DNA of 64,000 nucleotides from an uncultured Pseudomonadota bacterium (GCA_963847705.1 CAWKBC010000021.1:1-64000), one strand, 5' to 3'. Positions 2,973 to 34,789 are shown, numbered from the stretch's first letter. The notes: a model not told the origin generated them from the letters alone. A program made the numbers and translations.

Positions 2973-3034
2973 GGGAGACTCCTGATTTGGGGTTGACGCG
3001 GCAGCTCAGTTACGACGCCGCGCCGCCAGAGGAA

Positions 3035-3050
3035 TGCACCGCACATGCCA
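3035..3050 (-). promoter_or_regulatory. Sigma-54 (-24/-12) promoter for the small secreted protein
   Basis: Minus strand TGGCATGTGCGGTGCA = GG-N10-GC; AT-rich tract 3052-3098 upstream (IHF-like). Confidence 0.6.
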
Positions 3051-3217
3051 GTATGAATCTAAACAAACTCGAAACAATTCCATGCATTTGAGAACTTAGC
3101 CCCGATCTGCGCGACAGATTTGTGGGGCGATCCTGCGCGCGAGGCCTACCTCATGGTGCGAACTGCCCCACGGCGCACACGCCTGTTCCAGATTGCGTGT
3201 TCTGGTCTGTGTGAACG

Positions 3218-15050: not shown

Positions 15051-15061
15051 GGAGAAAAGTC

Positions 15062-15487: not shown

Positions 15488-15514
15488 GCCCCGGCGCCGA
15501 CCGAGGAGACCGCC

Positions 15515-16950: not shown

Positions 16951-17654
16951 GGCGCCAGCGGCTCCCGCGCCCCGCACGGGCCCCGGCGGGGTTCACGCTG
17001 ATCGAGGTGATGCTGGCGCTCGCCATTCTCGGCTTCGTCACGACGATCATGTGGGGGTCGTTCAGCCAGACCGTCGCCAACAAGAAGGCGATCGAGTCGG
17101 CGCAGGAGCGGACGCACAACGTCCGCGTGGCGCTCATGCGGATCGTGCGCGAGATCGAGATGGCCTACCTCTCCGCTTCGGAGAACACCGCCCTCTCGGA
17201 GCGCCGGACGTTCTTCCTCGGGTCGTCGCACGGCGACGTCGATGAGCTGACGTTCTCCAGCTTTGCTCACCAGCGGCTGCGGGCCGGTCTCGCCGAGGGG
17301 GACACCTCGCTCATCTCCTACTTCGGGGAGCGCGATCCGGACGACCGCCGGGTCCTCAACCTCATGCGACGCGAGACGCGGCGCCTGCAGGCGGAGAACC
17401 CCAGCACCATCATCGGCGAAGCCTACATCCTCTGTCCCGACGTGAGCCGCCTCAAGATCCAGTACTACGACCACAAGCTGAAGGAGTGGGTCAACGAGTG
17501 GAGCACGCTCAACGCCAGCGGCAACCAGTACCTGCCGACCCACGTCCGCGTCACGCTCACGGTCATCGATGAGCGTGGCGAGGAGGTCTCCTACTCCACC
17601 GACGCCCGCATCCAGATGACCGAGAAGGTCGACTACAAGCCGGTGAAGCAGTGA
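16947..17654 (+). CDS. gspJ: Minor pseudopilin GspJ
   Basis: AG|FTLIEVMLA; C-terminal W…W…LPTHVRVTL. Confidence 0.85.
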   Translation: MRRQRLPRPARAPAGFTLIEVMLALAILGFVTTIMWGSFSQTVANKKAIESAQERTHNVRVALMRIVREIEMAYLSASENTALSERRTFFLGSSHGDVDELTFSSFAHQRLRAGLAEGDTSLISYFGERDPDDRRVLNLMRRETRRLQAENPSTIIGEAYILCPDVSRLKIQYYDHKLKEWVNEWSTLNASGNQYLPTHVRVTLTVIDERGEEVSYSTDARIQMTEKVDYKPVKQ

Positions 17655-19132
17655 GGTTCTTCCGCCGCTTCCGCGGCTCACAATCCCCCCCCGGCCCCCC
17701 TTGCCCCAAGAGGGGCGCCGGCTCTCGCCGTGCCTCGCTCCGCGCAGCGAAGCTGCGCTCCGCTGGGAGGCCTCCTCTGTCCCGGAAGGAACGTGGCGTC
17801 GCCATGTTGATCGTCTTGACCTGGTTGGCGCTGATGATCTCCGTCATCGGCGAGTTCACCTACGGCACCAGCGTCGACGCCGCCCAGGCGGCCAACGCGC
17901 GCGACGAGCTGCGGGCGCACTATCTGGCCCGCTCGTCGGTCAGCCTGTCGCGCCTGCTCATCAAGATTCAGCAGCAGTTCATCGACCCGGTGATGGGACA
18001 GGTGCAGAAGATGCTGACCAGCGCGATGGGGTCGAGCACCTCGAACAACGGCACCGGCGGCGCCAGCGGGTCGAGCGCCCCCCCCACGCTCGGCTTCTCC
18101 CTGCGCGTGACCGACTACGCCAGCTCGCTGATGGGGTTCTTCAGCGGCTCGAAAGACGAGGTGGCCGGCCTGGGGAGCCTCATCGGTATCGACACCAGCA
18201 ACGTCAAGGGGCTGGGGCTGAAGTCCGGTAACTTCGACGCCGAGATCACCTCCGAGGACGGCAAGATCGACATCAACTGCGGGGGCGGTGTGGCCTCGGA
18301 TCGCAGCAAGCAGCTGATCGTCTACCGGCTGCTGATGGGGCTCATGTACTCGCGCCGCTTCGACAAGCTCTTCTCCGAGGCGGACAACACCGGCAACTTC
18401 GCGCTGCGCACCGATGTGGCGCGGGCGATCATCGACTGGGCCGACGGCGACGAGCAGATGTTCTCGCCGGAGGGGGGCTCGAACTCCGAGGACTACCGCT
18501 ACGACGCCCACGCCGATCACTACCGCGCGCACGACAACAGCTACGACACCATCGAAGAGGTGAAGATGGTGCGCGGCGTCTCCGACGGGTTCATGGAGGC
18601 GTTCCAGCCCTTCCTCACCGTCTACGCCTCGGATCCCAACTGCAAGGTGAACCTGGGCGCGATCAGCAACAAGGAGAGCGGCGATTGCACGCCGCTGGTC
18701 ATGGCCGTCATCCGCGCCGCCGCCACGCCCGATCCCCTCAAGCCCCCCGCCGATCCGACGGTGTTCGACGACGCCATCCTTTATCCGCTGGCCAGCATCC
18801 TGTGCGACCGGGCCTCGACCGCCGGCTTCGACAGCCTCAACACCATCACCAGCCTGCTGGCCAACCCACAGACCGCGGTGCTCCCCGACGATCCGCGCTA
18901 CCGGATGTTCCAGGGGATGAAGCCGCTCACCGTCGACGCGGGGGCGCTGGGGAGCGTGGCCTATGTGGGATCGCCGCGCGTCTACCGCGTCGCCGCCACC
19001 GGCGAGTCGGGGCGGGTGAAGAAGAAGATCACCGCCATCGTCGACACCGGGCGCACCCTGGAAAACCCGCTCACGCTGACCCCGCAGTCCGAAAAGGCCG
19101 CCGGCGTCCTGCAGTACTGGCGCGAGGAATAG
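17651..19132 (+). CDS. gspK: Minor pseudopilin GspK
   Basis: ERG|VAMLIVL (no Glu5, typical of GspK), EDGKIDIN, AIIDWADGD, TIEEVKMVRGV. Confidence 0.9.
   Translation: MRFFRRFRGSQSPPGPPCPKRGAGSRRASLRAAKLRSAGRPPLSRKERGVAMLIVLTWLALMISVIGEFTYGTSVDAAQAANARDELRAHYLARSSVSLSRLLIKIQQQFIDPVMGQVQKMLTSAMGSSTSNNGTGGASGSSAPPTLGFSLRVTDYASSLMGFFSGSKDEVAGLGSLIGIDTSNVKGLGLKSGNFDAEITSEDGKIDINCGGGVASDRSKQLIVYRLLMGLMYSRRFDKLFSEADNTGNFALRTDVARAIIDWADGDEQMFSPEGGSNSEDYRYDAHADHYRAHDNSYDTIEEVKMVRGVSDGFMEAFQPFLTVYASDPNCKVNLGAISNKESGDCTPLVMAVIRAAATPDPLKPPADPTVFDDAILYPLASILCDRASTAGFDSLNTITSLLANPQTAVLPDDPRYRMFQGMKPLTVDAGALGSVAYVGSPRVYRVAATGESGRVKKKITAIVDTGRTLENPLTLTPQSEKAAGVLQYWREE
17681..17775. repeat. Palindromic REP-like insert inside the GspK leader peptide
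   Basis: C-rich/G-rich ATCCCCCCCCGGCCCCCCTTG…AAGAGGGG plus perfect hairpin GCGCAGC-GAA-GCTGCGC (17742-17758); atypical codons. Confidence 0.55.
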
Positions 19133-19141
19133 AAAAGGATC

Positions 19142-20746
19142 ATGGCTCACACCGTCTGCGGCATCGATCTCGGCGCGTACTCGATCAAGTTGGCCTTTTT
19201 GGAGGCTGGCTTTCGCGCCACCACGCTGCGCGGCCTGGAAGAGATTCCGGTGCCGGCCGGCGAGGCCCCGCTCCTCGACCGCCAGATGGCGGCGGTGCGC
19301 GAGGGGCTGGCCCACCTGCCGGGCGAGGTGACCCCCTACCTGGCCGTGGCCGGCGATCAGCTCTCGGTGCGGGTGCTCGAGCTCCCGTTCACCGATGCCC
19401 GCAAGATCGATCAGGTGGTCGGCTACGAGCTGGAAGGGCAGATCGTCAACGCCATCGAGGACGTGGTGTTCGATCATCTGGTGGCCGCCGAGAAACCGGA
19501 GGGGACGACCATCCTGGCGGCCGCCGCCAAGCGCGAGGATCTGGCGGCCTTGATCGCGGCGGCCGAGGCGCAGGGGATTCATCCCCGTTCGTTGTTCGCG
19601 GCCCCGGTCATCTACCGGACCCTGTTCCCGGCCGTGGCGTCGGTCGGCGACGAGACGCCCGCCTCCTGCCGGGCGGTGCTCGACTTCGGTCACGAGCGGA
19701 CCAACGTCTGCATCATCCGCGGCGGCAACGCCATCTACGCCCGCACCATCCGGCGGGGCGGGGCGCACCTGACCGCCGCGATTGCCAAGGCGTTCAACGC
19801 CGACCCCACGCGGGCCGAGCAGGCCAAGCGCGGCGAGGCGTTCATCGCCAGCGCGGGGAAGGTGCCGAGCACGCCCCTCCTGGTCAAGCTCGACGCCGTC
19901 TTGCGGGAGGCGCTGGCCCCCACCATCCGCGAGCTGCGGCAGACGCTGGCCAGCTTCGCGGCCAGCGCCAAGCTGGAGATCGACGCGCTGCTGGTCGTCG
20001 GCGGCGGCGGGCGTCTGGCGGGGCTGCTCCCGTTTCTCGAGGGGGAGCTGGGGATCCCGGCGCGCCATCCCAGCGTGCGCGACGTGATGGAGAGCGGTGG
20101 TCGCCACCTGACGCGCGATCCGGCCGACATCGAGGAGGCTGCGCCCGAGGCGGAGGTGTATACGCTGGCCGGGGCGATCGCGGTGGCGGCGGCCGCCGGC
20201 TCGCGCGAGATCGACTTTCGCCGCGGGCCGTTCGTCTACCGCGCGAACTTCTCGATCCTCCGGCAGAAGGCCGGGCACCTGGCGATGCTGGCGGCGTCGC
20301 TGGTGCTGGCCGCCGGAATCGACCTGGGGGCCAAGTCTTCCAGCCTGGGGGCGGAGCGGAAGGCGCTCGACAAGGAGCTGAGCAGCGCCACGCAAGAGCT
20401 GTTCGGCAAGCCGCGCGACGACGCCCCGGCGGTGACCGAGCTCATGCGCAAGGGCTTCCGCGAGGACCTGGCGCCCCTGCCCAAGGCGACGGCCTTCGAT
20501 CTGCTCGATCAGATCTCGCGCAAGGTGCCGCCGGCCGACAAGGTCAAGCTGGACGTCTCCGAGCTGGAGATCCGCCCCAAGAAGACCTTCATCAAGGGGA
20601 CCGCGGACACCGCCGCCGCCGTCGACGAGATCGCCGGCAAGCTGAAGGAGATCGATTGCTTCGAGGAGGTGACCAAGGGGGCCATCACCGAGGTCTCGGA
20701 CGGCGGCAAGCAGTTCACCCTCAACATCACCTCCAAGTGCCCGTGA
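19142..20746 (+). CDS. gspL: GspL: PilM/FtsA-like actin-fold domain fused to TM and periplasmic domain
   Basis: GIDLGAYSIKL, VLDFGHERTN, LVVGGGGRLAGL actin-fold motifs; TM segment and periplasmic domain in the C-terminal part; position between gspK and gspM. Confidence 0.85.
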   Translation: MAHTVCGIDLGAYSIKLAFLEAGFRATTLRGLEEIPVPAGEAPLLDRQMAAVREGLAHLPGEVTPYLAVAGDQLSVRVLELPFTDARKIDQVVGYELEGQIVNAIEDVVFDHLVAAEKPEGTTILAAAAKREDLAALIAAAEAQGIHPRSLFAAPVIYRTLFPAVASVGDETPASCRAVLDFGHERTNVCIIRGGNAIYARTIRRGGAHLTAAIAKAFNADPTRAEQAKRGEAFIASAGKVPSTPLLVKLDAVLREALAPTIRELRQTLASFAASAKLEIDALLVVGGGGRLAGLLPFLEGELGIPARHPSVRDVMESGGRHLTRDPADIEEAAPEAEVYTLAGAIAVAAAAGSREIDFRRGPFVYRANFSILRQKAGHLAMLAASLVLAAGIDLGAKSSSLGAERKALDKELSSATQELFGKPRDDAPAVTELMRKGFREDLAPLPKATAFDLLDQISRKVPPADKVKLDVSELEIRPKKTFIKGTADTAAAVDEIAGKLKEIDCFEEVTKGAITEVSDGGKQFTLNITSKCP

Positions 20747-20759
20747 GCGAAAGACGATC

Positions 20760-21398
20760 ATGAGCGCGCTCAGCAACCTTCGTGAATCGGTGACCCGGCT
20801 GGTCCGTCGCCCGGCTGCGTTTTTCGTGGGCGAGTGGGAGCGGCTCGGCCCCCGCGAGAAGCGCTGGGTGACGGTGCTGGGCGCGGCGGTGGCCACCGTG
20901 GCCGTCGCGCTCTTCGTCATCTACAAGCTCAGCGACATCAGCGATCTCGAGGAGGGCAACGCCGCCATCCGGGAGGCGCTGTCGGAGATCTCCAAGCATC
21001 GCGACGAGTACCTCGACGCCAAGGCCCGCAACTCGGTCCAGGAGGCGCGCATCGGCGATGCGCCGCCCCAGCTGGCCGGCGATCTGGAGGCCGCCGCGCG
21101 CGCCGAGAACATTCAGATCGCCGAGTCGAGCGAGCGCCCCACCGTCCCCGCCGGACGCCGCTACCTCGAGCACGACACCGATCTCAAGATCCGCGAGGCC
21201 GACCTGCAGAGCGTGACCAACTTCCTCAAGCGGGTGGAGACCGGTCCGCGTCTCATCTTCTTCACCCGGCTGGCGCTCAAGCACCCCTACGCGGCCGATC
21301 CGGGCAAGCTGGACGTGGAGGCGACGGCGACGGCGTTCGAGAAGGTGCACGAGGACAAGAGCAAGAAGAAGACCGCCGGGCAGGACAAGAAGGAGTAG
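20760..21398 (+). CDS. gspM: Type II secretion protein GspM
   Basis: WERLGPREKRW followed by TM (GspM hallmark), operon position. Confidence 0.8.
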   Translation: MSALSNLRESVTRLVRRPAAFFVGEWERLGPREKRWVTVLGAAVATVAVALFVIYKLSDISDLEEGNAAIREALSEISKHRDEYLDAKARNSVQEARIGDAPPQLAGDLEAAARAENIQIAESSERPTVPAGRRYLEHDTDLKIREADLQSVTNFLKRVETGPRLIFFTRLALKHPYAADPGKLDVEATATAFEKVHEDKSKKKTAGQDKKE

Positions 21399-21401
21399 CG
21401 C

Positions 21402-22694
21402 ATGGTCACCCTCTCGCCAGATCTGCTGCGTCGTCTGCGCCGTCCTCTGCTCTCCGGCCTTTTCGGCCTGGTCGTCTTCATCGTCGCGCTCTACTTCTCA
21501 TTCCCCTCGGAGCGCGCCAAGGAGGTGGCGATCCGGACGGCCGCCGCGCGCGATCTCGATCTCGAGATCGGCTCGGCCAGCCCCGCGTTCGGGCTGGGGG
21601 TGGTCTTTCGCGACATTCTCGTACGCACCAGGCCGGCCACGGGAAAACCGATCCGCTTCACGATCGAGTCGGCCCGGCTCTCGGTCTCCCCCTGGTCGCT
21701 GCTGTCGTCGTCGAAGACGATCACCGTCTCTCTCGAGGCGTTCGGCGGCCACATCGACGTCACCCAGACCGGCGCGGCTGGAAAGAAGGGGCCCTTCGAG
21801 CTGCAGATCCGCGCGCATGACGTCCGGTTGGGCGATCTTCCCGGCGTACGCGACGCCATCAACCTGCCGCTCTCCGGGACGGCCAAGCTCGATCTCAGCA
21901 TCCTTTCACCGAGCGGCAAGCTGGCCGAGGCCAACGGCGAGATCACCCTCTCTTGCGACAACGTGGTGATCGGCGACGGGAAGACGCCGCTCAAGGTGGC
22001 GGGCAATCCCTTCCTGAGCGGCGGCCTGACGCTGCCCAAGCTGCGGCTCGACGATTTCGGCGGTCACGTCGCGATCGACAAGGGGCTGGCCAAGCTGCAG
22101 GAGATCGCCGGGAAGTCTCGCGACGGCGAGGTGGCCCTGGAGGGGGAGGTGACGCTGCGCGATCCCTTGCCGACCTCGACGGTCAACGCCTACCTGCGCT
22201 TCAAGTTGTCCGACGCGTTCCTCAAACAGGCCTCCGCGGTGGCCACCATGCTGCAGATGGTGGGCGCTCAGGGGAAGCGTCCGGATGGGTTTTACGGGAT
22301 GCGGCTTTCCGGGCGTCTCGGCCAGTTGAATCCGCCGGTGCTGTCGCCGACGTCGCCGATCATCGGCGCGCCGCCCCCGCGCTCCGGGACGCACGCGGCG
22401 ATCACCCCGGCGTTCCGGCCGCCGGTTCCGGCGCCGTCCGCTCCGCCGCCAACGCCCGCGCCGGCGGCGATCGTCGCGGCGGCTCCTCCGCCCCCGCCGC
22501 CGGAGCCGGCTGCTCCGCCGCCGCCGCCGCCGGCCCCGCCCGCGCCGCCGGCCGCCGCGGCGACCTCCTCGCCCACGCCGGGGGCGGGAGGCTGGCATCC
22601 CCCGGGACCAGCCGTCGCCGATGGCTCACCCGCCGCCGCCGGCGAGGCGCCGCCGGCGCCGCCACCGGCTCCCCCTCCCGCCGACCAGCCGTAG
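21402..22694 (+). CDS. gspN: Type II secretion protein GspN with Pro-rich C-terminal tail
   Basis: N-terminal TM ending YFSFP, beta-rich body, last gene of gsp operon. Confidence 0.75.
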   Translation: MVTLSPDLLRRLRRPLLSGLFGLVVFIVALYFSFPSERAKEVAIRTAAARDLDLEIGSASPAFGLGVVFRDILVRTRPATGKPIRFTIESARLSVSPWSLLSSSKTITVSLEAFGGHIDVTQTGAAGKKGPFELQIRAHDVRLGDLPGVRDAINLPLSGTAKLDLSILSPSGKLAEANGEITLSCDNVVIGDGKTPLKVAGNPFLSGGLTLPKLRLDDFGGHVAIDKGLAKLQEIAGKSRDGEVALEGEVTLRDPLPTSTVNAYLRFKLSDAFLKQASAVATMLQMVGAQGKRPDGFYGMRLSGRLGQLNPPVLSPTSPIIGAPPPRSGTHAAITPAFRPPVPAPSAPPPTPAPAAIVAAAPPPPPPEPAAPPPPPPAPPAPPAAAATSSPTPGAGGWHPPGPAVADGSPAAAGEAPPAPPPAPPPADQP

Positions 22695-22705
22695 AGGCGC
22701 GGCCT

Positions 22706-23707
<1,002 letters not shown>

Positions 23708-23762
23708 GCACACCTTGTCGGTCTCGCACCGACGCCTGTTGCTAGGAAAACCCGTTGGGCGG

Positions 23763-24443
23763 CTACGCCCCGAGGCCGACCCAGGCTTCGCCGCTCTCGC
23801 CGATCTCCTTCTTCCAGATGGGCGCGCGCAGCTTGAGGCGATCGATCGCCGCGCGGCAGGCCTCGAAGGCCGGCGCGCGGTGCTCCGCCGCCGCCGCCAC
23901 GACGACCGCGACCTCACCGACGGCCAGCGCGCCGGTGCGGTGATGGATGGCGACGCGCACGCCGGGCCACTCGCGCTCGATCTCGACCGCGATCTCGGCG
24001 AGGACCGCCTCGGCCATCTCGCGGTAGGCCTCGTACTCCAGACGGACGACGTCGGGCAGATGGTGGCCACGCCGCCGGACGATCCCCGCGAAGGTGACGA
24101 CCGCGCCCGCATCGCCGCCCGCATCGCCACCTGCGACCGCCGCGATGGCCGCGGCGAGCGTCACCGGCGCCGCCGAGATCCGGATGGCCTCGGGCGCCGA
24201 GCCACCGGCAACGGGCGGCAGCAGCGCCAGCTCGTCACCGTCGGCGAGGGTCCGCGTGTCGGGGGCCACCACGCGGTTGACGGCGAACTGCACCCCCGGC
24301 AGGAGCGCCGCCACCGACGGATGTCGGTCCGCGATGGCCACGCGTGCGTCGCGCACCGAGGCGCCCGCGGGCAGCTCGACCGTCTCGTGGTCGAGCTGAG
24401 TTCGCTCGCGCAGCACCGCGAAGTAGAGGACGTCGACCTTCAT
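23763..24443 (-). CDS. moaX: Fused molybdopterin synthase MoaD-MoaE
   Basis: MKVDVLYFA…LLPPVAGG (MoaD) followed by GAVVTFAGIVR, LEYEAY, HRTG, PIWKKE (MoaE). Confidence 0.93.
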   Translation of the reverse strand: MKVDVLYFAVLRERTQLDHETVELPAGASVRDARVAIADRHPSVAALLPGVQFAVNRVVAPDTRTLADGDELALLPPVAGGSAPEAIRISAAPVTLAAAIAAVAGGDAGGDAGAVVTFAGIVRRRGHHLPDVVRLEYEAYREMAEAVLAEIAVEIEREWPGVRVAIHHRTGALAVGEVAVVVAAAAEHRAPAFEACRAAIDRLKLRAPIWKKEIGESGEAWVGLGA

Positions 24444-24561: not shown

Positions 24562-25488
24562 TTGCGCTTGCACGCGGCGGTTGATAGGCTTTTCCCCGCT
24601 CAACCGAGGGAGCATGCTGATAGTGAGGCCCATTTGAAGCGTCCCCTGACGTCCCCCCAGGCTCCGGCTCCGTCCCTTCCCCGTCGTCAACTCTCGCTTC
24701 CGTTCAATGCGGACGCGGCGCCGGAGCTCGAGGTCGGAAGCCGTTCCCGGCGCGCGCTGCGGCGCGAGGCCGCCGCGCGCGAGGTTCGCCTCGCGCCCAC
24801 CCTCGAACAGACGACCGACCAGATGGCCGCGGCGCTGGCGCTCTACCTGCCACCCGGCAAGACGCTGGAGCTGCGGTTGACCAACAACCACTACAGCATG
24901 ATCTCCGTGCGCCGGAAGGCGGATGGCTACCGACTGCGGCTGCACCAGATGTTCGTCGGCGCCGAGCCGCGGGTGGTGCGGGCGCTCGCCCGCTATGTCG
25001 TTCACAACGACCGGCGCGCGTCGACCTTGCTGGGCGAGTTCATCGAGCAGCACCAGCACATCATTCGCCAGCAGGAACGCCGGCCGCGCCACCTCACGGT
25101 CCGCACGGCCGGGCGCTACCACGACCTGCAGGCGATCTTCGACCGCCTGAACGGCGAGCGGTTCGGCGGCGCGCTCGACGCGCGCATCACCTGGGGGCCG
25201 GTCGCCTCGCAGCGGCAGCGGCGCCGGTCGATCAAGATGGGGAGCTTCGCGGTCGAGGATCGCGTCATCCGCATCCACCCGGCGCTCGACCAGGCCTGCG
25301 TCCCCGACTACTTCGTGGCCTGGATCGTCTTCCACGAGATGCTGCACGGCAAGCACGAGGTCAAGCGTGAGAACGGCCGCCGCCGCTTCCACACGCCGGA
25401 GTTTCTCGAGGAGGAGCGCCAGTTCTCTGACTATCGCCGCGCCTGTGCCTGGGAGAAGCAGAACCTCGATCGCCTGCTCCGCTCGTAG
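24562..25488 (+). CDS. SprT/YgjP-like zinc metallopeptidase domain protein (true start may be ~24634)
   Basis: IRIHPALD…WIVFHEMLH…RFHTPEF: HExxH plus downstream His. Confidence 0.75.
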   Translation: MRLHAAVDRLFPAQPREHADSEAHLKRPLTSPQAPAPSLPRRQLSLPFNADAAPELEVGSRSRRALRREAAAREVRLAPTLEQTTDQMAAALALYLPPGKTLELRLTNNHYSMISVRRKADGYRLRLHQMFVGAEPRVVRALARYVVHNDRRASTLLGEFIEQHQHIIRQQERRPRHLTVRTAGRYHDLQAIFDRLNGERFGGALDARITWGPVASQRQRRRSIKMGSFAVEDRVIRIHPALDQACVPDYFVAWIVFHEMLHGKHEVKRENGRRRFHTPEFLEEERQFSDYRRACAWEKQNLDRLLRS

Positions 25489-25549: not shown

Positions 25550-26650
25550 ATGAGCGACCGCATGGGGCGGCGAAGCCAGTTCATCGACGCCAGCAGGGGC
25601 CTTGCGATGCTGCTGGTCTTCCTGTCGCATTTTGCGATTACGTACCTTGGCGTGTTGACCGATCCCCGTCCGGGTCGGATCGCCGCCTTGCTCGCCAGGC
25701 CGGCCACACCGACCTTCGTTTTGCTGAGCGGGTTGCTGATTGGATTCCTCAGCGTCGAGCGCCCCGGTTCGTTCCCCGGTCTGGTCGTCAAGCTGGTGGA
25801 TCGCGGGCTGTTCCTGCTGGGCCCCGCGCACGTGATCATCGCGCTGGCGCACCTCGTGATATTCGGCCACGCCCGTTTCATCTTCATCACGGACGCCATC
25901 GGGGTCAGCATCTTGATCGGTCCCTGGATGGTGACCCGGTTTTCGTCGGGTGGGCGAGCGCTGCTGGGGCTCGCGCTGGTGGCCGTGACCTGGCGGTTCC
26001 ATCTCACCTGGAATCCCACCACCGCCGCGGGGCGCTGGATCCACACAGCCTTCGTGGGCGACGAACCCTTCAAGTACGGCTGGCTGACGTTCCCGTTTCT
26101 GCCCTGGTTGGGCGTCTATCTGCTGGCGACCCCGCTGGGAGAGGCCCTTGGTGAGTGGAAGCGCTCCGGCAACGGCTTCGTTCTCCGGCTGGCGATGATT
26201 TCAGTCGCCTCGATGAGCGTTGGGCTGGCGCTGGTTTTCATCGGCCGCCGATGCAGTCCGGAGCTTCGTTCGTTCTTCAGCCCCAATCAGAAGTACCCGC
26301 CGAGCCCGGCCTACGTTCTGAGCTGGGGTGGCTTGGGGCTGGCCGTCATGACGTGCTTCGCCTGGCTCGACGAGCGGGGGCGCGCTTCCGCGTTGCTGTC
26401 TGCGCTTGCCTTGCTGGGCCGTGCCTCGTTGGTGGCGTTCGTCGTGCAGTACTTCGTCTACTACGTCGTGGTGTATTCCCTCCATTTGCCGGCCTCGGGT
26501 CTGTGGCCCGCGTACCTCTGCCTGTCGGTGCTGGTCATCTACGGCGTCTCCGCTTTCTGGGATCGCTACCTGGGCAACGACTACCTCACCGTGGGGATTC
26601 CCCGCCTGATTCAAGCGCGCGAGCGGGCGGCGCTCTCCCGGCAAGTCTGA
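25550..26650 (+). CDS. Polytopic membrane acyltransferase-like protein (DUF1624/HGSNAT-OpgC-like, acyltransferase-3 clan)
   Basis: IDASRGLAMLLVFLSH, PTFVLLSG, FPFLPWLG, KYPPSPAY, LGRASL motifs; about 9-10 hydrophobic segments. Confidence 0.75.
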   Translation: MSDRMGRRSQFIDASRGLAMLLVFLSHFAITYLGVLTDPRPGRIAALLARPATPTFVLLSGLLIGFLSVERPGSFPGLVVKLVDRGLFLLGPAHVIIALAHLVIFGHARFIFITDAIGVSILIGPWMVTRFSSGGRALLGLALVAVTWRFHLTWNPTTAAGRWIHTAFVGDEPFKYGWLTFPFLPWLGVYLLATPLGEALGEWKRSGNGFVLRLAMISVASMSVGLALVFIGRRCSPELRSFFSPNQKYPPSPAYVLSWGGLGLAVMTCFAWLDERGRASALLSALALLGRASLVAFVVQYFVYYVVVYSLHLPASGLWPAYLCLSVLVIYGVSAFWDRYLGNDYLTVGIPRLIQARERAALSRQV

Positions 26651-26725
26651 GCAGGGGCTGAGCGGCAGGTCGCCGCCGGGCGACCTTTGGCTCGAAAAGG
26701 GGATTCTCGCGGGCAGTTCCGGCGC

Positions 26726-26747
26726 AAATGTGATATGTATCACCGTA
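26726..26747. promoter_or_regulatory. CRP/FNR-family binding site upstream of the NRPS
   Basis: AAATGTGA-TATGTA-TCACC matches AAATGTGA-N6-TCACA with one mismatch in the right half-site. Confidence 0.55.
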
Positions 26748-26814
26748 TCTGATTGCGGAGGTCGAGGAGCGCGGAACTCCTTCCCGATCGACGCACGGCC
26801 TCCATCTTCTTCCC

Positions 26815-29443
26815 ATGGCTTTCTCCGCTGAATCCGTGACCCTGGCGGCGGCCCGCGGACGTGATCCCGGGATCGACGCACCTGATTTCGTCGAGATCAT
26901 CGCGGCGAGCACGGTGCGGCGTCCCCATCACCCGGCGGTGGAGGGGCCTGACGCGACCCTCACGTACGCCGAGCTGGATCGGCTCTCCAATCAGCTGGCC
27001 CGGCGCTTCGTCGCCGCGGGGGTCGGGCGCGACAGCTGCGTCGGCATCTCGCTTCCGCGCGGGGCGCGCGAGCTGGTTGCGATGTTGGCGACCAGCAAGG
27101 CGGGCGGCGCTTACGTCCCGCTCGACCCGTCGCACCCCATCGATCGTCTGCAGCTCGTTCTGGAGGACGCGGCCCCCCAGGTCATGGTGATCCATCCGGG
27201 CTCGCCGCTGGCGGGTGCAACCAAGGCGGCCAACGTCATCGTCCTCGACGACCTCGGACATGTGACCGAGGGCTACGATTCGACACCTCCCCTCGTCGCG
27301 CACGATCCCACCCAGCTCGCCTATGTCCTGTTCACCTCGGGGTCGACCGGTCGACCGAAGGGGGTCGAGGTCCCGCGCGGCGCGTTCTCCAATTTCCTGC
27401 GCTCGATGGCCCACGAGCCTGGGCTGTCGGAGGCCGAGCGGCTGCTGGCGGTCTCGACGACCTCCTTCGACATCGCGGGTCTCGAGCTGTTCCTGCCACT
27501 TTACGTGGGGGCCACGACGGTCATCGCCGATCGCGCGACGGTGATGGATCCGCGCCTGCTCCGGCTGCGCCTGGAGGCGGACGACATCACGTTCATGCAG
27601 GCGACCCCGGCGACCTGGCGGTTGCTGCTGGAGGCGGGATGGAAGGGCCACCCGAGGCTGCGGATGCTGTGCGGCGGGGAGGCGTTGAGCAGAGCCCTGG
27701 CGGATCGACTGCTCGCCTGCGGAGGTGAGCTCTGGAACATGTACGGTCCCACCGAGACCACCGTCTGGTCCTCGTTGCAGCGGATCGCGCCTGGCACCCA
27801 GCGGATCAGCATCGGAAAACCGATCGACCGCACGCAGATCTACGCCGTCGACGATCAACGCCGGCCCGTCCCCCTCGACGCGGTGGGGGAGCTCTGCATC
27901 GGGGGCCATGGCCTGGCGCGCGGGTACCGCGGCCGGCCCGACCTCACCGCCGAGCGCTTCGTCCAAAATCCCAGCGGGCCGGCGGGCGACCGCATCTACC
28001 GCACCGGAGACCTTGGGCGCCTGTCGGCAGATGGAACCTTCGAGTGCCTCGGCCGCATCGATCACCAGGTGAAGATCCGGGGATACCGGATCGAGCTCGG
28101 CGAGATCGAGTCGGTCCTCCGCGGGGTGGAGGGCGTTCGCGAGGTCCTGGTGGTCGCCGAGGACCAGGAGGGCGATCCCAGGCTGTCCGCCTACTGGGTG
28201 GGCGCGGCGGAGCGCGATGCGCTGGTCCGGGCGGCGCGTCGCACGCTCCCGCCCTACATGGTCCCTGCCAGCTATGTCCGACTGCAATCGTTTCCGCTCA
28301 CGCCGAACGGCAAGATCGACCGCAAGAGCCTCCCGCGCGGGGTGGCCGTCGCGTTGCAGTCGCCGCGGCTGAAGCCCCCCAGCGACGACACGGAGACGCG
28401 CCTGGAGGCGATCTGGTGCCAGGTGCTGGGGGTGGATCGTGTCGGGGTGGATCAAGACTTCTTCACGCTCGGCGGAACGTCGGTCCTGGCGGTTCAGACC
28501 TGCGTGCAGATCGAGAAGGAGACCGGCGTGGAGATCTCGCTGGCCTCGTTCTACGCCTCGCCCACGATCGAAGGCCTGGCGCCGTACGTCACCCGCGTCC
28601 GTGAGGCGTCATCGCCCGACGCCCCCATCATCGTCGACCTGCGCCGGAGCAACAGTCGACGCACGCCGCTCTTCTGTCTGCTGGGGGTGTCGCTCTATCA
28701 CGAGCTGGCGCTCGCCCTCACCGAGGATCGAACGGTCGTCGGAATGCATGTTCCATTCAGGCACGTTCCCGGCACCGATCCGCGGCCGACGGTGGCCGAG
28801 ATGGCTGCCGGATATCTGGCCTTGATCCGGGACCGGCAGGCGCACGGGCCCTACTACCTGGCCGGCCTCTGTTTCGGAGGGGATCGTCGCCTTCGAGGTC
28901 GCCCGACAGCTCGAGGCTCAGGGCGAGGAGGTGGGCCTGGTGTCGGTGATTGACGGGGCCTTGCCGCTCGGGATGGAGACCAATCCCCTGCGCAACCTGG
29001 CGGGATACCTTCGCTTCGCTCTCCAGCGGCCCGAGTCGATCGCGGGCGCTGTCCGCAAGAATCTGGGGAAGCTGCGCGCGCGCTGGCAGCCGAGGCCGTC
29101 GACGGGCGCGGTGAGGTCCCTGTTGCCGGTCGAGGTGGAGATCGACGGCCCCGAGGCCGACGCCGAGGTGGCCCGCTTCGCCTCGAGCGTGAGGGGCATC
29201 CGTGGCCGCCTGTTGATCATCCGGGCGTTGTCCCAGACGCTCCCCAGCTGGAGGATTCAGCCGCCCCATCTCGGTTGGCAGGGGTTTTCAGAGCGCCTGA
29301 CGATCTGCGAGGTGCCGGCCTCCCATCTGGGGCTTCTGAAGGACCCTCGCGTTCGTGTCGTGGCGAAGGCCCTCGCCGGAGCCATCGCTGCGGACGAGGC
29401 TGCGCGGGCGCAGCTCGACCCGCGTGAAGCAGCCTCCGGTTGA
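26815..29443 (+). CDS. Stand-alone NRPS A-PCP-TE, predicted glycine-activating; frameshift near 28880
   Basis: YVLFTSGSTGRPKG, YGPTE, YRTGD, QVKIRGYRIELGEIE, NGKIDR; PCP FFTLGGTS; TE GLCFGG continues IVAFEVARQL…VIDG…SHLG in ORF 28931..29443 after removing one G from ggagggga. Confidence 0.9.
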
Positions 29444-29482
29444 CCGTCTCGCCCACGCGGAGCCCGGCGCGCGGAGCAGCGG

Positions 29483-30529
29483 TCACGCCGCGAAGAGATC
29501 CAGCGTTCGTTCGATCTCCTCGGGGTCGATCCAGAAATCGTCGCCGCGTGGCAGACCCACCACGAAGCCGAACTGCTGCTGGTCGCGATCGGTCAGATCC
29601 TTGAGGATCGCGGAGAACCGGTTGGGCGGTTGCAGGACCAGGACCCCGCCCCCGCTCTCCAGGACCAGGAGGCCGTGCACGAGGCCGCTCCCTTCGACCC
29701 CCACCACGACTCTGGCGCCCGCGCAGGCCTGGACGATGGCAGGGACATCCTGTTTGCCCGGATCGACGATGGTGAAGCCCCGGCGGTCGCGCAGCTGTTC
29801 GGCGATCTCGGTCTCGTTGCGAAGGACGCGCCGGGATCCGGTCGCTCCGCGCATGATGAACACGCCGGCGTGAGGGCGTGGTTGCACCCGCCGCCGCAGC
29901 CGTTCGCCCAGTGAATGAAATCGAGCGCGCTTGCTCCGGTTCTGCCCGATGTCGTCGAAGACGACGAGCTCGCGGAAGAAGGCGCCCTCGGTGCGGACCG
30001 GTCTCATCTCCAGCCAGGCCTCGTATCCGGGGGTGTGGTTGTTCACCTTCTGCGCGGTCGTGACGGGGACGCCCTCGGCCAGGGCGAGGGCATACGTGAC
30101 GCAATCGTCCATCAGCCATTGCCCAAAGAACCGATTCCCACCGGGGGTGCAGTAAAGGGCCCCGCGTTCGATCTCCTGTTCGACCCGCAGGCGCGGAATC
30201 CTCCCGGTTCGAGGGTGCAGGTGCAGGGAGGCTCCGCCTTTGTAGAGCACCCCGTCGACCAAGACCGCGTCCCGAATTCGAAAGGCGCGCGACGCGGCAT
30301 GGACGCTGGTGTTTCCGCCCCGTACCATCGACAGATCTCCGTCGCGCGAGCTGAACTCGCTGAAGCCGGTGATTCGCTCCCACTGATCGGGCAGGAACAG
30401 CGCCGGCGGGGCGACCCGCTGGTGGGCCGGCGCGAGCTCCCACGACTGCGAGGCGACCTCTTGCAGGTTGCGGGCGGGCCCTCGCGCCAAGCGTCGCAGC
30501 CGCTCGACCACGGGCAAAGCGGTCCACAC
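29483..30529 (-). CDS. Glycosyltransferase family 61 (DUF563-like)
   Basis: FFGQWLMD, FIMRG…RRVLRNETEI, ARVVVGVEGSGLVH motif; GTG start 7 nt after TATAGT. Confidence 0.8.
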   Translation of the reverse strand: MWTALPVVERLRRLARGPARNLQEVASQSWELAPAHQRVAPPALFLPDQWERITGFSEFSSRDGDLSMVRGGNTSVHAASRAFRIRDAVLVDGVLYKGGASLHLHPRTGRIPRLRVEQEIERGALYCTPGGNRFFGQWLMDDCVTYALALAEGVPVTTAQKVNNHTPGYEAWLEMRPVRTEGAFFRELVVFDDIGQNRSKRARFHSLGERLRRRVQPRPHAGVFIMRGATGSRRVLRNETEIAEQLRDRRGFTIVDPGKQDVPAIVQACAGARVVVGVEGSGLVHGLLVLESGGGVLVLQPPNRFSAILKDLTDRDQQQFGFVVGLPRGDDFWIDPEEIERTLDLFAA

Positions 30530-30591
30530 GGGCGGCACTATATCGAAAATCGTGAGGCGATGAATGTGGGCCGCACTACCATCGGAGGGCA

Positions 30592-31539
30592 TTGAACGGG
30601 CCGGACGCTTTGGTACGCTGCCGTTCGGTGGACAGGCCGACCAATCAGTCATGCGCGTCTGGCCTCGCGGCGCAGGGGCGGATCGCCCTCGGCATCGTCG
30701 CATTGCTTTCGGCGTCGGGCTGCCACCGCCACTCGTTCGCGCCGGCCCCGGCGCCGTCCAAGCCGCACTGGTCGGCGCCGGCTCCCATTCGCGACGGCGA
30801 CGGCGTTTTCTTCGTGGGGAACAGCTTCTTCGGGTGGCAGGGGCGCTCGTTGCCAGCCTGGGTCACGGCGCTGGGTCAGGCGGTCTCGCCACCGATCCGG
30901 ATCGTCACCGGCTCCGATATCGTCTTCGGCAACCATCCGCTGGCAGAGTTCTTGGACCACGCGGCGACCCGGGAGGCTCTTGCCTCGCGCAAGTACCGGG
31001 TCTTCGTGTTGCAGGCCGAGGAGCTCGAGGCGGTCGACCACAAGGCGGACTTCCAGCAGGCGGTGCGCGACTTCAACCGCGCGGTCGTCGCGGCGGGAGG
31101 GCGGACGATTCTCTTCATGACCTGGGACTTTTCCTGGCGTCCGTTCATCGAGAAGCTCGCCGCGTCATACGACGAGATCGGGCGCGAGCTCGGGATCCCG
31201 GTCATTCCGGTGGGGCTCGTCTACCGGGACTGCGGCGACCGGCCCTATGCGCACGGAATGCCGCCCCACTGGTTGATCGCCGACGCCCAGCACGCGCTGG
31301 GGGATCTGCACCCGAACGAGAAGGGTGCCGCGGTCGACGCCTACGCGACGTTCGAGATGCTGACCGGGATCAACCCGCACGGGCGCAACTTCACCGCCCC
31401 TGGCAACACCAATGACGACGACATCATGAAGTATCTCTCCGCCATGTCGTGGGCCCGGGTGGAGCCCCGGCTGCGGACCGACACCGACACCCCGGCCGTC
31501 CGGGTCAGCGCAATCGCCAGGCCCGCGCCTTCTCTGTGA
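30592..31539 (+). CDS. SGNH/GDSL-fold lipoprotein (DUF4886-like)
   Basis: Lipobox ASG-C; block I VFFVGNSF, VLQ, FMTW, IPVG, block V GDLHPN. Confidence 0.72.
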   Translation: MNGPDALVRCRSVDRPTNQSCASGLAAQGRIALGIVALLSASGCHRHSFAPAPAPSKPHWSAPAPIRDGDGVFFVGNSFFGWQGRSLPAWVTALGQAVSPPIRIVTGSDIVFGNHPLAEFLDHAATREALASRKYRVFVLQAEELEAVDHKADFQQAVRDFNRAVVAAGGRTILFMTWDFSWRPFIEKLAASYDEIGRELGIPVIPVGLVYRDCGDRPYAHGMPPHWLIADAQHALGDLHPNEKGAAVDAYATFEMLTGINPHGRNFTAPGNTNDDDIMKYLSAMSWARVEPRLRTDTDTPAVRVSAIARPAPSL

Positions 31540-32038
31540 GCCCGGCCAGCGCGGGCGCCTTCGCGGCTGAATAGGCGAGCAACGTCGTCGCGCCGCCGGC
31601 GATCGCCGCGCGCTTCGCCGCCGCGTACGCCGCTGCCTCCTCGGGGTGCGCGCGGAGGTAGTCCCGGAGCGCGAGGTTGTCGCGCCAGCGCCGGCCGCCC
31701 TCTTCGACCAGCGCCAGGTTGAAAGCGCGGAGCGCGGTTCGCTTGCGGAAGTAGATCCGGCCGGAGACGCCGGCCTCGCCGAGGTCTTCATAGCCGAGCG
31801 CCACCACCCTCGGGCGGAGCTCCTCGAGGGCGGCCCAGACGGTCGGCGAAGCGCCGAGCATCAAATCGACAATCGGTTTGCCCGCCAGCCCGGGGACGGC
31901 GGTGGAGCCGATGTGCTCGAACTTCAGCGACGCGGTGGCCAGGCCGAGGCGGACGCGATCGCGCTCGGCGCGGTAGCGGCCCTCGTAGTGGGGGTCGGGG
32001 TCGGTGATCTCGACGGGCTCGTCCACATTGGCGCTCAC
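31505..32038 (-). CDS. GrpB (UPF0157) family protein
   Basis: EHIGSTAVPGLAGKPIVD, LRDYLRAHP…YAAAK…YSAAK. Confidence 0.92.
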   Translation of the reverse strand: MSANVDEPVEITDPDPHYEGRYRAERDRVRLGLATASLKFEHIGSTAVPGLAGKPIVDLMLGASPTVWAALEELRPRVVALGYEDLGEAGVSGRIYFRKRTALRAFNLALVEEGGRRWRDNLALRDYLRAHPEEAAAYAAAKRAAIAGGATTLLAYSAAKAPALAGLTEKARAWRLR

Positions 32039-32141: not shown

Positions 32142-34040
32142 CTATCTCTTGAGCACGCCGGCCAGCCGGCCGGGGAGCTCCATCTCCTCGATCTCCTCGA
32201 GCGGCTTTTCCAGCGCCAGTGACCAGTTGGGCCACTCGTTGACGGTCCCCGGCAAGTTGGGGCGCTCGGGCGCAGCGACCGCGTCGTCGAGCGTGGCCAG
32301 AAGGACGCGCGACGGCGCCTGCGCCAGCGCCCGGTGGGTCGATTCGATCACCGCCTCGACGGGCGCCTGCTCGTCGAGGTTGCCGAGCAGGCGCAGCTTC
32401 TCGCGCAGCGCCTTGGTCCCGGCCTCGTTGGGGTCGATCCCGATCTGTTTTTGCGCCCTGGCGTCGAAGCCGCTCCAGAGGCCGGCGATGGTCGGCAGAT
32501 CGTGGGTGGTGACGCTGGAGAGCGCCAGCTCCGGGAAGTGGTGCGGCGGCGCCGGCTCGAAGTAGAGCAGCCGGTACGACATCATCCGGTGGTGGTGCAG
32601 CCGCTCGCGCACGCCCGGCTCGACGGTGCCGAGATCCTCGCCGATGATGAAGGCGCGCGCCCGCTCGCTCTCGAGCGCCACGATCGCCATCAGCTCGTCG
32701 GCGCGCGCACGCACGTAGCTCCCCCGCTTGGTCCCGAGCGCCCGTGGGATCCAGAACAGGCGGAAGAGACCCATGACGTGGTCGATCCGCAGCCCGCCGA
32801 CGTGCGAGAGCATCCCGCGGATCGTCTCGATGAAGGGCTGGTAGCGGGCGGCGCGCAGCCGGTGCGGGATGAAGGGCGTCAGCCCCCAGTCCTGGCCGGC
32901 CGCGTTGAACTCGTCGGGCGGGGCGCCGACCGAGACGTCACGCGCCAGCAGGTCCTGCCAGCACCAGGCGTCGGCGCCGGCCACGTCGAGGCCGATCGGC
33001 AGGTCGTTGATGATGGCGATCGTCTGGGCGGCGCGGGCCAGCTGCGTGTCGAGCTGCCACTGCAGCCAGCTGTGAAAGGCGATGCGCCCGCCGTTGGCCT
33101 TGCGAAACACGGCGGCGCCGTCCCCGTCGGGTCGCCGCAGCGGCTCCGGCCACCTGCGCCAGTCCTTGCCGTGCAGCTCGGCGATCGCGCAGTAGGTGGA
33201 GAAGTCGGTCAGCGCCTGGCCTCTCCCCCGGCGGAACCAGTCGAACCCGTCTTCCTGGCCGCCCCGCTTTGCGAAGTCGGCGAAGATCGCCTCCAGCGCC
33301 TCCGTCTTCAGCTTGAAGATCGCGTCGCGGTCGATCTTGCGGGTGGCGTTCAACGCGCGCCCGGCGTTGCCGAGCCGTTCGCGCGTCCCTGCCTCCAGCC
33401 GCTCCCACCCCGGCACCTCCTCGACGCGCAGGAAGAGCGGGTTGGCGAACCGGCGGCTCGACGGGTAGTAGGGGGAGGGCTCGATCGGCAGCACCGGCGT
33501 CGGCGCCACCATCGGGTTCACCATCACCACGCCGCCGCCGAGCCGCCTGGTGAAGCGCCCGATGCGCGCCAGGTCGGCCAGGTCGCCGATCCCCCAGCTC
33601 TGCCGAGAGCGCGCGGCGTAGACCTGCGCCGCGAAGCCCCAGGTACGCAGGTCGTGGGGCAGGAAGCAGTGCCCCGGGCTGACGATCAGCGAGACGTCGC
33701 CCCCCTCGCCGTGCCCCTCGGGATGCAGGCGGTGGTAGCCGTGGGGCAGATCCCCCGGCAGCTCCCCCTCGACGACGCGGTGGCCCCCGTCCTCCAGCAC
33801 CAGATCGGCGCGGCCTTGCCACCTGCGGTCGCTGCCGGGGACCAGGACGCGCACCGCGTGCGAACCGTCGTTTTCGGGCGCCTCGGCGTGCGGATCGGCC
33901 CACATCGCGGCCTTGAGGGCGGCGCGCGTCTCGTCCGAGGTGGTGTGCGCGGCGCCGGCCGCGTCGTGGAAGCCGGCGACGATGCCGAACGGATCGGTCT
34001 CCGGGTGCTTGCGCCTGTCTTTGTCTTTATCTAGGGCCAT
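32142..34040 (-). CDS. malQ: 4-alpha-glucanotransferase (GH77)
   Basis: WGIGDLADL, PSPYYPSSR, DLPIG, GAPPD…GQDWG, LRIDHVMG, GEDLG, THDLPT, NLPGT…PNW. Confidence 0.95.
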   Translation of the reverse strand: MALDKDKDRRKHPETDPFGIVAGFHDAAGAAHTTSDETRAALKAAMWADPHAEAPENDGSHAVRVLVPGSDRRWQGRADLVLEDGGHRVVEGELPGDLPHGYHRLHPEGHGEGGDVSLIVSPGHCFLPHDLRTWGFAAQVYAARSRQSWGIGDLADLARIGRFTRRLGGGVVMVNPMVAPTPVLPIEPSPYYPSSRRFANPLFLRVEEVPGWERLEAGTRERLGNAGRALNATRKIDRDAIFKLKTEALEAIFADFAKRGGQEDGFDWFRRGRGQALTDFSTYCAIAELHGKDWRRWPEPLRRPDGDGAAVFRKANGGRIAFHSWLQWQLDTQLARAAQTIAIINDLPIGLDVAGADAWCWQDLLARDVSVGAPPDEFNAAGQDWGLTPFIPHRLRAARYQPFIETIRGMLSHVGGLRIDHVMGLFRLFWIPRALGTKRGSYVRARADELMAIVALESERARAFIIGEDLGTVEPGVRERLHHHRMMSYRLLYFEPAPPHHFPELALSSVTTHDLPTIAGLWSGFDARAQKQIGIDPNEAGTKALREKLRLLGNLDEQAPVEAVIESTHRALAQAPSRVLLATLDDAVAAPERPNLPGTVNEWPNWSLALEKPLEEIEEMELPGRLAGVLKR

Positions 34041-34789
34041 GGGCGCGGGCGGCGGACGCGGAACGAGAGCTCGGTGAACAGCAGGCCGCGGAAGACCATG
34101 GCCCAGTTGATGAAGATCAGCATGACCGGTTCCAGCCAGCGGGGAATGGTGTTCAGCGTGCCGGTCAGGCCGTCGAGCGAGAACAGCGACTGGAAGGCCA
34201 TCAGCCGCATCGCCAGCGGTCCGTGCTGGATGAGGCCCGTCGGCGCCAGCAGCACCGCGGCCATGAGGACGCTCGGCGCCAGCCACTCGGGCCAGTGCGC
34301 GGAGATGAACCGCGCCGCCTCCATCAAGAGCCCGAACGAGCGGGTGCGTCCCCCGCCCAGGTAGATCATCTCGGGGATCGGGTTGAAGAAGACCACCATC
34401 GTCAGGTCGACCAGGACGAAGATGATCGTGCCGCGATCGCCGAAGCTGCGGGCCACCACGCTGACGACCAGCTGGATGACCCAGGTCGCGAACATGACGC
34501 TGATGACGTCGCTGAAGTGCGCCAGGAAACTATCGCGAAAGTCGCCGAAGCCGATCTTGCGTCCGGCCACCGCCAGCCCGACCAGGTTGAGATAGCTGGA
34601 GGCGAGAAAGGCGATCAGGAACGCCAGCAGGAAGCCGCCCAGCATTCCCCCGCCCCCACCCAGCGAGCCCAGCAACCCACCTCCGATCTGTAGGAGCGCC
34701 GCATACAGCGGCAACACCACGGCCGCCGGCCAACCCCGCAACGCCAGGCGGATCGCTTTTCCCGCGAGGCGTGCGTAGAGCTTCAGCAT
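34031..34789 (-). CDS. Hypothetical integral membrane protein, co-transcribed with malQ
   Basis: 3' part of ORF 34031..35947 (MLKLYARL…) with ~6 TM segments; ATG 6 nt after TATCAT; stop overlaps malQ start. Confidence 0.75.
   Translation of the reverse strand: MLKLYARLAGKAIRLALRGWPAAVVLPLYAALLQIGGGLLGSLGGGGGMLGGFLLAFLIAFLASSYLNLVGLAVAGRKIGFGDFRDSFLAHFSDVISVMFATWVIQLVVSVVARSFGDRGTIIFVLVDLTMVVFFNPIPEMIYLGGGRTRSFGLLMEAARFISAHWPEWLAPSVLMAAVLLAPTGLIQHGPLAMRLMAFQSLFSLDGLTGTLNTIPRWLEPVMLIFINWAMVFRGLLFTELSFRVRRPRPWP

Follow-up and report, generated by a model that had tools for sequence, protein, structure and literature searches.

The window analyzed, a stretch of 64,000 nucleotides from an uncultured Pseudomonadota bacterium (GCA_963847705.1 CAWKBC010000021.1:1-64000; contig C21 of a myxobacterial genome of 6.1 Mb, 85% complete, referred to as G000), hosts a cassette of four genes lodged between a SprT-like and a GrpB-family gene. 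In this order, the genes encode a membrane acyltransferase, a protein resembling nonribosomal peptide synthetases (NRPS) and made up of an adenylation (A) domain, a peptidyl carrier protein (PCP) and a thioesterase (TE), a GT61 glycosyltransferase, and a lipoprotein with an SGNH fold. Named homologues of the window proteins come from Polyangia. The NRPS, GT61 and SGNH genes are a real, recurrent three-gene module, apparently undescribed, its probable target being exopolysaccharide (EPS); they make up the conserved core of the cassette, and the NRPS also occurs in the absence of its two partners. Chances are even, in our estimate, that the TE, which features a cysteine nucleophile, transfers glycine in the cytoplasm to the precursor of an EPS of the Pea type, named after the Pea polysaccharide of Pseudomonas putida.

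The non-redundant genome loci of the enzyme, which lacks a condensation (C) domain, include 16 loci linked to GT61, the window being one of them, and 19 with none of the three partners (GT61, SGNH and membrane gene). In the GT61-linked set the SGNH gene is also found in 12 loci, the membrane gene in four, and all four genes in two only (the window and G011); G066 is a probable third four-gene locus, split over two contig ends. The four genes, described as one system in the initial annotation, are thus rejected as a fixed unit: linkage of the NRPS to GT61 and SGNH was borne out elsewhere (trio in 12/16), linkage to the DUF1624-type membrane gene was not (4/16). The conserved trio is present in several myxobacterial families, and matches were obtained in genomes of the Nannocystaceae or Anaeromyxobacter type. 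In the family of the host, GT61 was detected in 5 of 89 genomes, in all five near the NRPS, and SGNH in four of the 89.

The NRPS-like gene spans positions 26815 to 29443 of the plus strand, both frames included. The first frame (26815..28881) encodes the A domain, the PCP and the first third of the TE, the second (28883..29443) the TE remainder, in which codons 28952 and 29324 correspond to the putative triad Asp and His. By Pfam, the protein has an AMP-binding, a PP-binding and a Thioesterase domain, and is devoid of a condensation domain. The PCP is fused within the polypeptide (residues 529-591; Ser556 at codon 28480), and the TE cysteine resides in the motif GLCFG (codon 28870). The gene is the sole close match of its kind in G000, the other three matches being 26-38% identical; a phosphopantetheinyl transferase (PPTase) gene is located on contig C7. 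PPTase genes also accompany the trio in four other loci (L192, L195, L197 and L198).

Homologues found were 166, and figures out of 120 refer to those listed: 108 are shorter than 1,100 aa, the 12 longer ones being C-A-PCP-TE proteins. The A-domain pocket reads DILQLGMVWK, and is of the glycine type. The best PDB matches for the pocket region are 5u89 (DhbF, DILQLGLIWK) and 4zxh (AB3403, DILQLGVVWK), from which the window enzyme differs at two and one of 10 positions, respectively; according to PMC10510592, module 1 of DhbF corresponds to glycine, and AB3403 is shown with AMP and glycine. Because of the pocket and the closest structures, the A domain is predicted to activate glycine, as initially proposed. 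The pattern DILQLG[MLV][VI]WK was read in 81 of the 120 homologues, 16 being unreadable and 23 different, some of the latter as a consequence of pattern misfires. Two members of the clade (L079 and L080) have a different pocket (D-I-Y...L-I-C), and their enzymes likely activate another amino acid; L079 keeps GT61, with no SGNH gene in the locus.

The TE nucleophile is a cysteine in 120/120 listed homologues, and in 15/15 proteins of the aligned set; none of these has the canonical GxSxG serine. PMC11298585 presents cysteine as the less common TE nucleophile, encountered among solved structures in SulM, ObiF and AB3403, and ties it in the first two to release reactions out of the ordinary. A quick tree of 52 rows, built on the A-PCP part with no root test, unites the C-less enzymes in a single group (SH-aLRT 98; 34/52 rows), except for one contig-truncated row and a separate pair; the nearest rows outside the group are C-A-PCP-TE proteins. 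Four listed loci were dropped because they gave no long enough match, and five frameshifted or fragmentary loci were left out. The tree needs four changes for the GT61 label, and is not used to claim any order of events. Among close homologues the C-terminal TE part (28883-29443) is 53-88% identical, vs. 87-95% for the A domain, which suggests a diversifying or recombining lid region.

The link to EPS was monitored in one draw of 401 genomes of the class, 25 of which were counted as carriers (TE match >160 bits). A GT2 glycosyltransferase of the Pea type was found in 24 of the 25 carriers vs. 89 of the 401 genomes overall, in 14/14 carriers vs. 38/72 genomes of the host family, and in 8/9 vs. 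29/71 genomes of a second family (f11), where the GT2 has as its partner a sugar epimerase fusion instead of a full cluster. NRPS copies devoid of GT61 sit among GT2, GT4, WecG, Wzx, Wzy, AsnB and epimerase genes (Pfam), a polysaccharide marker being found within the fetched locus in 14 of 19, and the Pea-type GT2 in seven of these; markers were also found in 11 of 14 loci encoding C-A-PCP-TE enzymes with the TE cysteine. Both GT2 co-occurrence and EPS neighbourhoods support the surface-glycan target suggested by the initial annotation. Pea itself (PP_3132-3142) was identified by gene order and annotation, not by KT2440 sequences; GT61 loci of the Pseudomonas type show the Pea gene order, VirK included, as given in a table in PMC4287175. 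No Pea structure with glycine was found.

G000 carries a full Wzx/Wzy EPS cluster of the Pea type, unlinked to the window (C30:102298-134871; L189, L190), encoding WcaJ, Wza, Wzc, several GT2 and GT4 enzymes, WecG, Wzx and Wzy, and ending with a hydrolase-1/2 fusion, a small open reading frame (ORF) resembling acyl carrier proteins (ACP) and two hexapeptide genes. Its genes are 29-54% identical to genes of loci with the Pea order (PP_3135-3142-like). Relatives have a C-A-PCP-TE with the TE cysteine beside this hydrolase, and none was found in G000. Such enzymes lie in other EPS loci (L039, L047, L048, L049 and L051) beside a fused exosortase-type hydrolase 2/1 and a GT2, and could deliver N-acyl amino acids. 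In two of the loci with GT61-less NRPS copies, inside EPS clusters, an FkbH-PCP-TE fusion with a cysteine nucleophile (GLCAGG) is found one GT2 from the glycine enzyme (L030:12567-15536, L031:4251-7439), and is likely a glyceryl-transfer counterpart. Since in EPS loci both FkbH-PCP and C-A-PCP are fused to it, the Cys-type TE follows different loading heads.

The GT61 gene (29483..30529, minus strand) encodes a DUF563 protein of about 348 aa, its GTG start being inferred from homologues. The identity initially assigned holds, PF04577 scoring 53.5 bits vs. a cut-off of 27, and the predicted model having the fold of POMGNT2 (Z 14.8, rmsd 6.1, 270 aligned residues; Foldseek E 5e-7); neither a characterised close homologue nor a significant PDB sequence match was found. 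The protein is likely cytoplasmic, because it features no hydrophobic segment. POMGNT2 is the only clear structural relative, and one may imagine that GT61 glycosylates proteins or peptides as POMGNT2 does, NRPS and SGNH tailoring that glycan. We consider this very improbable: identity to POMGNT2 is 12-14%, and no other GT61 structure surfaced; the neighbours of bacterial GT61 genes are polysaccharide polymerisation and export genes, and no acceptor protein recurs among them. In the best 80 of 174 GT61 metagenome loci, a GNAT gene is directly upstream in 36, DUF535 is adjacent in seven and elsewhere in the locus in 14 more, the Cys-TE NRPS is found in nine, and the membrane gene in one; none of the 80 combines the NRPS with GNAT or DUF535. 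The GNAT label derives from ESM Atlas clusters (score 0.99; PF13480 on 13-15% of members), the protein upstream of proteobacterial GT61 having neither a Pfam nor a PDB sequence match. A protein of about 1,280 aa, with a ToxA_N domain and leucine-rich repeats, is encoded just upstream of the GNAT-GT61 pair in 11 loci of the Pseudomonas type (L158, L166, L175 and related ones). Two Paracoccus plasmids (L185:10784-17939 and L187:7466-16714) feature the order SGNH/GDSL, GT61, acetyltransferase, AMP-ligase, ACP and pyridoxal phosphate-type (PLP) enzyme; in L187, gmd, GDP-fucose synthase and DegT aminotransferase genes come before them.

The SGNH lipoprotein (30628..31539, plus strand; about 303 aa, start inferred) has a lipobox cysteine (Cys32), a Pro-rich linker, Ser66 (GNSF) and His228 (DLHP). 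The Pfam match is itself below cut-off (18.1 vs. 32.9), and the identity first proposed is sustained by fold and lipoprotein signal. With the predicted model (pLDDT 81.9), Foldseek returned 44 matches at E<=0.001; SGNH proteins lead the list, 4s1p (best match, E 1.7e-8) and the DUF4886 protein 4i8i being nearest. In the alignment Ser66 is conserved and His228 invariant, and the Asp before the His varies; all 18 listed homologues have a hydrophobic stretch ending in Cys, then a Pro-rich linker, before the domain. PatB structures rank 26-36 against the model, level with plain esterases, and no AlgJ, AlgX or PatB family was listed by Pfam. The SGNH gene was found in 10 of 301 class genomes, all 10 among the 25 with a strong TE match; in G645 the SGNH-GT61 pair and the NRPS lie on separate contigs.

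The membrane acyltransferase (25550..26650, plus strand), an accessory member of the cassette, is a protein of 366 aa with seven hydropathy segments, matching PF07786 HGSNAT_cat (41.5 bits, cut-off 22) and PF10129 OpgC_C (32.1, cut-off 21.4), and not PF01757; its description as a polytopic DUF1624/HGSNAT-OpgC-like protein is thus correct. Its first helix features the motif R16-X10-H27, found in 41 of 56 homologues, which we take to be the acyl-CoA-binding signature of acyltransferase-3 proteins. The gene adjoins the NRPS in 4 of 16 GT61-linked and 4 of 35 C-less Cys-TE genome loci, and was found in 9 of 89 family genomes (4 close). It is missing from the same chromosomal site in G074, where the best genome-wide profile match has an E of 1.6e-5. 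A 25-sequence profile gave no match in G610 and G298, both 95% complete and endowed with the trio, a distant match in G660 (E 2e-20) and weak ones only in G074 and G636. Distant homologues sit in polysaccharide loci with GNATs, one of five such loci having an NRPS nearby (distant, with a Ser-TE). The membrane gene is a lineage-specific passenger, dispensable for the trio, and its product is likely a separate O-acylase of the acyl-CoA type, which one lineage acquired; these counts and the missing matches in G610 and G298 speak against the glycine translocator of a fixed four-part system that it had been supposed to be. No opgGH or other glucan-synthesis genes were seen in the annotated fetched loci, the genome not having been searched for them.

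With domains, motifs, neighbourhoods and co-occurrence as described, we infer substrate, acceptor, compartment and order of steps of a pathway, in which the A domain would adenylate glycine and load it on the phosphopantetheinylated PCP, the glycyl group passing to the TE cysteine as a still-reactive thioester. Acting as a transferase, the TE would then move glycine, on the cytoplasmic side, to a hydroxyl or amine of a lipid-linked repeat unit or a nucleotide sugar. A branch sugar would be contributed to this pathway by GT61; once exported, the glycan would have its esters trimmed or re-positioned by the SGNH lipoprotein, and the membrane protein would be a separate acylase. Several observations weigh against cytoplasmic transfer of glycine to Pea-type EPS. 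The Fisher values for the NRPS-GT2 association overstate it, kin being not independent, and 65 of the 89 genomes with the Pea-type GT2 have no strong TE match. Some of the polysaccharide markers are generic, and several derive from the surveyed loci themselves; in a comparison set of Ser-TE loci, picked by TE similarity and hence not an independent control, markers occur in 6 of 14. A marker is near only 6 of 22 GT61-linked loci (15 genome, 7 metagenome), and in loci of the Nannocystaceae type the trio stands alone, with a PPTase of its own in four. As to GT61, 21 of the best 80 metagenome loci have none of the partners (12 of these are shorter than 4 kb), and the exclusion of NRPS and GNAT is confounded with taxonomy. 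The periplasmic SGNH protein is never found without the NRPS, which a purely cytoplasmic transfer does not explain, and in G078 and L107 an MBOAT gene and a second GNS..H-type gene lie in front of the NRPS. Lastly, the window copy of the NRPS may be inactive, as a consequence of the frameshift described below.

The 16 of 22 GT61-linked loci with no polysaccharide marker nearby, and the four with their own PPTase, fit a trio whose product is unrelated to bulk EPS and is a small molecule or resembles a glycolipid, namely a glycyl conjugate glycosylated by GT61 and matured outside by SGNH. The C-less group (34 rows, SH-aLRT 98) is moreover nearest to C-A-PCP-TE proteins, the architecture of AB3403, and A-T-TE enzymes such as MysE, RalA and AtrA make small molecules. 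Such a product is nonetheless distinctly unlikely, as the same enzyme clade is found inside EPS clusters next to the Pea-type GT2, co-occurrence with this GT2 reaches 24/25 genomes, the proteobacterial relatives of GT61 are mostly EPS-borne, and the trio has no recurrent transporter or tailoring gene next to it.

Transfer may alternatively follow a transmembrane relay resembling Dlt, a widened form of the model of the initial annotation, in which the TE would pass glycine to a membrane acyltransferase (OpgC-like here, MBOAT elsewhere), and the SGNH protein would place it on the glycan outside the cytoplasm. The conserved lipoprotein signal of the SGNH protein and its restriction to NRPS genomes (10/10) agree with this, as do the position of the membrane gene, on the same strand and upstream of the NRPS in the window, G078, G066, G011 and L106, the MBOAT and second SGNH-like genes preceding the NRPS in G078 and L107, and the unlinked MBOATs found in 3/3 f11 trio genomes tested. 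Yet the membrane gene is found in 4 of 35 C-less loci and gives no profile match in G610 and G298, G074 (85% complete) has neither a convincing membrane homologue nor an MBOAT, 19 NRPS loci are devoid of GT61 and SGNH, and the membrane protein has the R-X10-H motif (41/56 homologues), presumably binding acyl-CoA. We regard the relay as rather unlikely. MBOAT (PF03062) had no match in G000 (85% complete) or G074; G078 and L107 are the only two in which it adjoins the NRPS. MBOAT and the second, unrelated GNS..H-type gene, which has no Pfam match, immediately precede the NRPS at L022:11420-13949 and L107:4130-5560; when profiles of the cassette SGNH and of this second gene of L107 were compared, no match was obtained (probability 0.2).

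The four genes are all real, as the initial annotation had it; the frameshift in the TE had escaped notice, as had the cysteine nucleophile and the opposite strand of GT61. At 28879..28882 (plus strand) a G run one base longer than in relatives shifts the frame inside the nucleophile elbow of the TE, directly after GLCFG, so that the NRPS ORF (26815-28953) breaks there and the TE Asp and His lie in the second frame (28883-29443). The extra base is missing in 6/6 aligned relatives, and also in a contig about 91% identical (run X4). Comparison of G000 proteins with orthologues (79 pairs, about 30,000 residues) revealed no other true frameshift, the single flag being a mis-called antisense ORF; indel errors being thus rare in this assembly, a real lesion is favoured. 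The homopolymer context and the downstream frame, which is stop-free and 88% identical to the closest homologues (93% upstream), point instead to an assembly error or to an event of very recent date. The site is spanned by none of the zero-difference pieces listed for runs X1 and X2, and no RNA holder was listed for the stretch. Assembly error and recent lesion are close to evenly balanced.

The extra base relative to six relatives, the 79 clean comparisons, and the patchy distribution of the cassette, absent from the site in close relatives, would all be accounted for if the cassette were here a recently broken relic, its truncated protein lacking the TE His and making no transfer, a state compatible with any mechanism. 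Set against this are the homopolymer run, the conserved stop-free frame and the lack of a listed X1 or X2 piece covering the site, and we rate a broken relic only a little short of an even chance. Intact relatives of the NRPS are found in G074, G078 and G066, the window copy being a poor experimental starting point. In three more assemblies, too, this gene is spread over different frames (L037, L067/L191 and L089).

Literature searches, covering few subscription journals, returned no description of the NRPS, GT61 and SGNH combination. The cassette follows the logic of Dlt and AlmEFG, but belongs to neither. D-alanylation of teichoic acid is carried out by DltA, DltC, DltB and DltD. As in Dlt, the amino acid destined for an envelope polymer would be activated by an A domain and a carrier, an extracytoplasmic SGNH-fold protein is linked, and an MBOAT is also present in two related loci (TIGR04091, 160.7 bits vs. 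a cut-off of 375). Unlike in Dlt, A domain, carrier and Cys-TE are one polypeptide, with no separate DltC-type carrier, the scores against the DltA models are far below cut-off (TIGR01734, 236.7 vs. 559.85; NF003417, 244.5 vs. 476), the pocket is of the glycine type, the host is diderm and the partner is a GT61; no DltD family was listed for the cassette SGNH among the profile matches. The cassette shares with AlmEFG a carrier-dependent activation of glycine for a surface glycoconjugate, predicted here from the pocket; AlmG is named a glycyl transferase for lipopolysaccharide in PMC12012098. Differently from AlmEFG, neither a stand-alone carrier nor an LpxL-type transferase is found among the four genes, the rest of the genome not having been searched, the predicted transferase is a TE of the alpha/beta-hydrolase type, and the neighbours point to EPS rather than to lipid A.

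AB3403 (Acinetobacter, C-A-PCP-TE, 4zxh) has a near-identical A pocket and the same Cys nucleophile, whereas the window enzyme has no C domain and is associated with polysaccharide-type neighbours; AB3403 is described as uncharacterised in PMC11298585 and PMC10510592. The cassette membrane protein, above Pfam cut-offs and with its R-X10-H motif, resembles OpgC and the HGSNAT/DUF1624 clan. Known acyltransferase-3 members move acetyl or succinyl groups from CoA, and we know of none that takes PCP-bound glycine. The exosortase-associated AMP-ligase/ACP/hydrolase and FkbH-ACP modules of EPS loci share with the cassette EPS clusters or GT61 neighbourhood, and FkbH-PCP carries the same Cys-TE; they differ in the loading heads (acyl-AMP ligase, glyceryl transferase), these families being themselves annotated by context alone. 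If glycine is indeed transferred to EPS by the TE, the cassette would represent a third architecture, after Dlt and AlmEFG, for placing amino acids on envelope polymers, with a TE as transferase, and a class of NRPS-like genes, now taken for small-molecule clusters in genome mining, would be reassigned. Amino-acid substituents, predicted in that case on Pea-type EPS, would change the charge of the polymer and, in turn, biofilm, motility or phage interactions.

In L143 (71% GC), SGNH and GT61 genes are followed by a convergent VirK/DUF535 gene (2725-3171) in the position usually held by the NRPS. The swap was seen on this one contig and, given also the taxonomic confounding, slot sharing with VirK is a lead. 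DUF535 was found in one of 89 family genomes, one with no match for the NRPS at E 1e-100; no DUF535 or GNAT-cluster homologue was found in G000, and no usable match for DUF535 in the ESM Atlas. VirK/YbjX proteins are modelled as cytoplasmic GNAT-fold proteins of unassigned activity in PMC12562796, and lipid A is not altered by VirK according to PMC13109725. A speculative, and on balance improbable, reading is that Cys-type TEs are a general acyl-transfer arm by which EPS is decorated, with heads that can be exchanged (glycine A-PCP, C-A-PCP, FkbH-PCP), and that the version with glycine is a non-homologous stand-in for VirK/DUF535 and Fem-like GNATs; were it true, VirK/YbjX, a family of envelope proteins, would be an aminoacyl, likely glycyl, transferase for surface glycans.

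The insertion site of the cassette is marked by two genes outside it, the SprT-like gene on the left (24670..25488, plus strand) and the GrpB-family gene on the right (31505..32038, minus strand). In three of five same-genus genomes tested (G072, G078 and G055) sprT abuts grpB, and the four-gene block is therefore an insertion; in the remaining two, grpB was not found within the fetched flank beside sprT. GT61, on the minus strand, is convergent with the NRPS and divergent from the SGNH gene, and because of this orientation (+ + - +) the four genes do not form one operon. GC content at third codon positions (GC3) is 0.80-0.89 in the cassette vs. 0.87-0.95 in the gsp genes, in line with the codon bias first noted; genome-wide it is ordinary, corresponding to the 16th-54th percentile of 1,690 crude ORF calls from six contigs. 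Foreign codon usage was accordingly discarded as a weak marker of the cassette. Scans for promoters, terminators and RNAs gave no signal above chance. To the left of the insertion (13791-24443) are a type II secretion operon (gsp F-N like, the gsp names being assigned from reading of the sequences), a sigma54-type activator ORF and a MoaD-MoaE fusion. To the right of grpB (32142-34286) lies a 4-alpha-glucanotransferase gene (GH77, MalQ), syntenic in relatives without the cassette and therefore unrelated to it.

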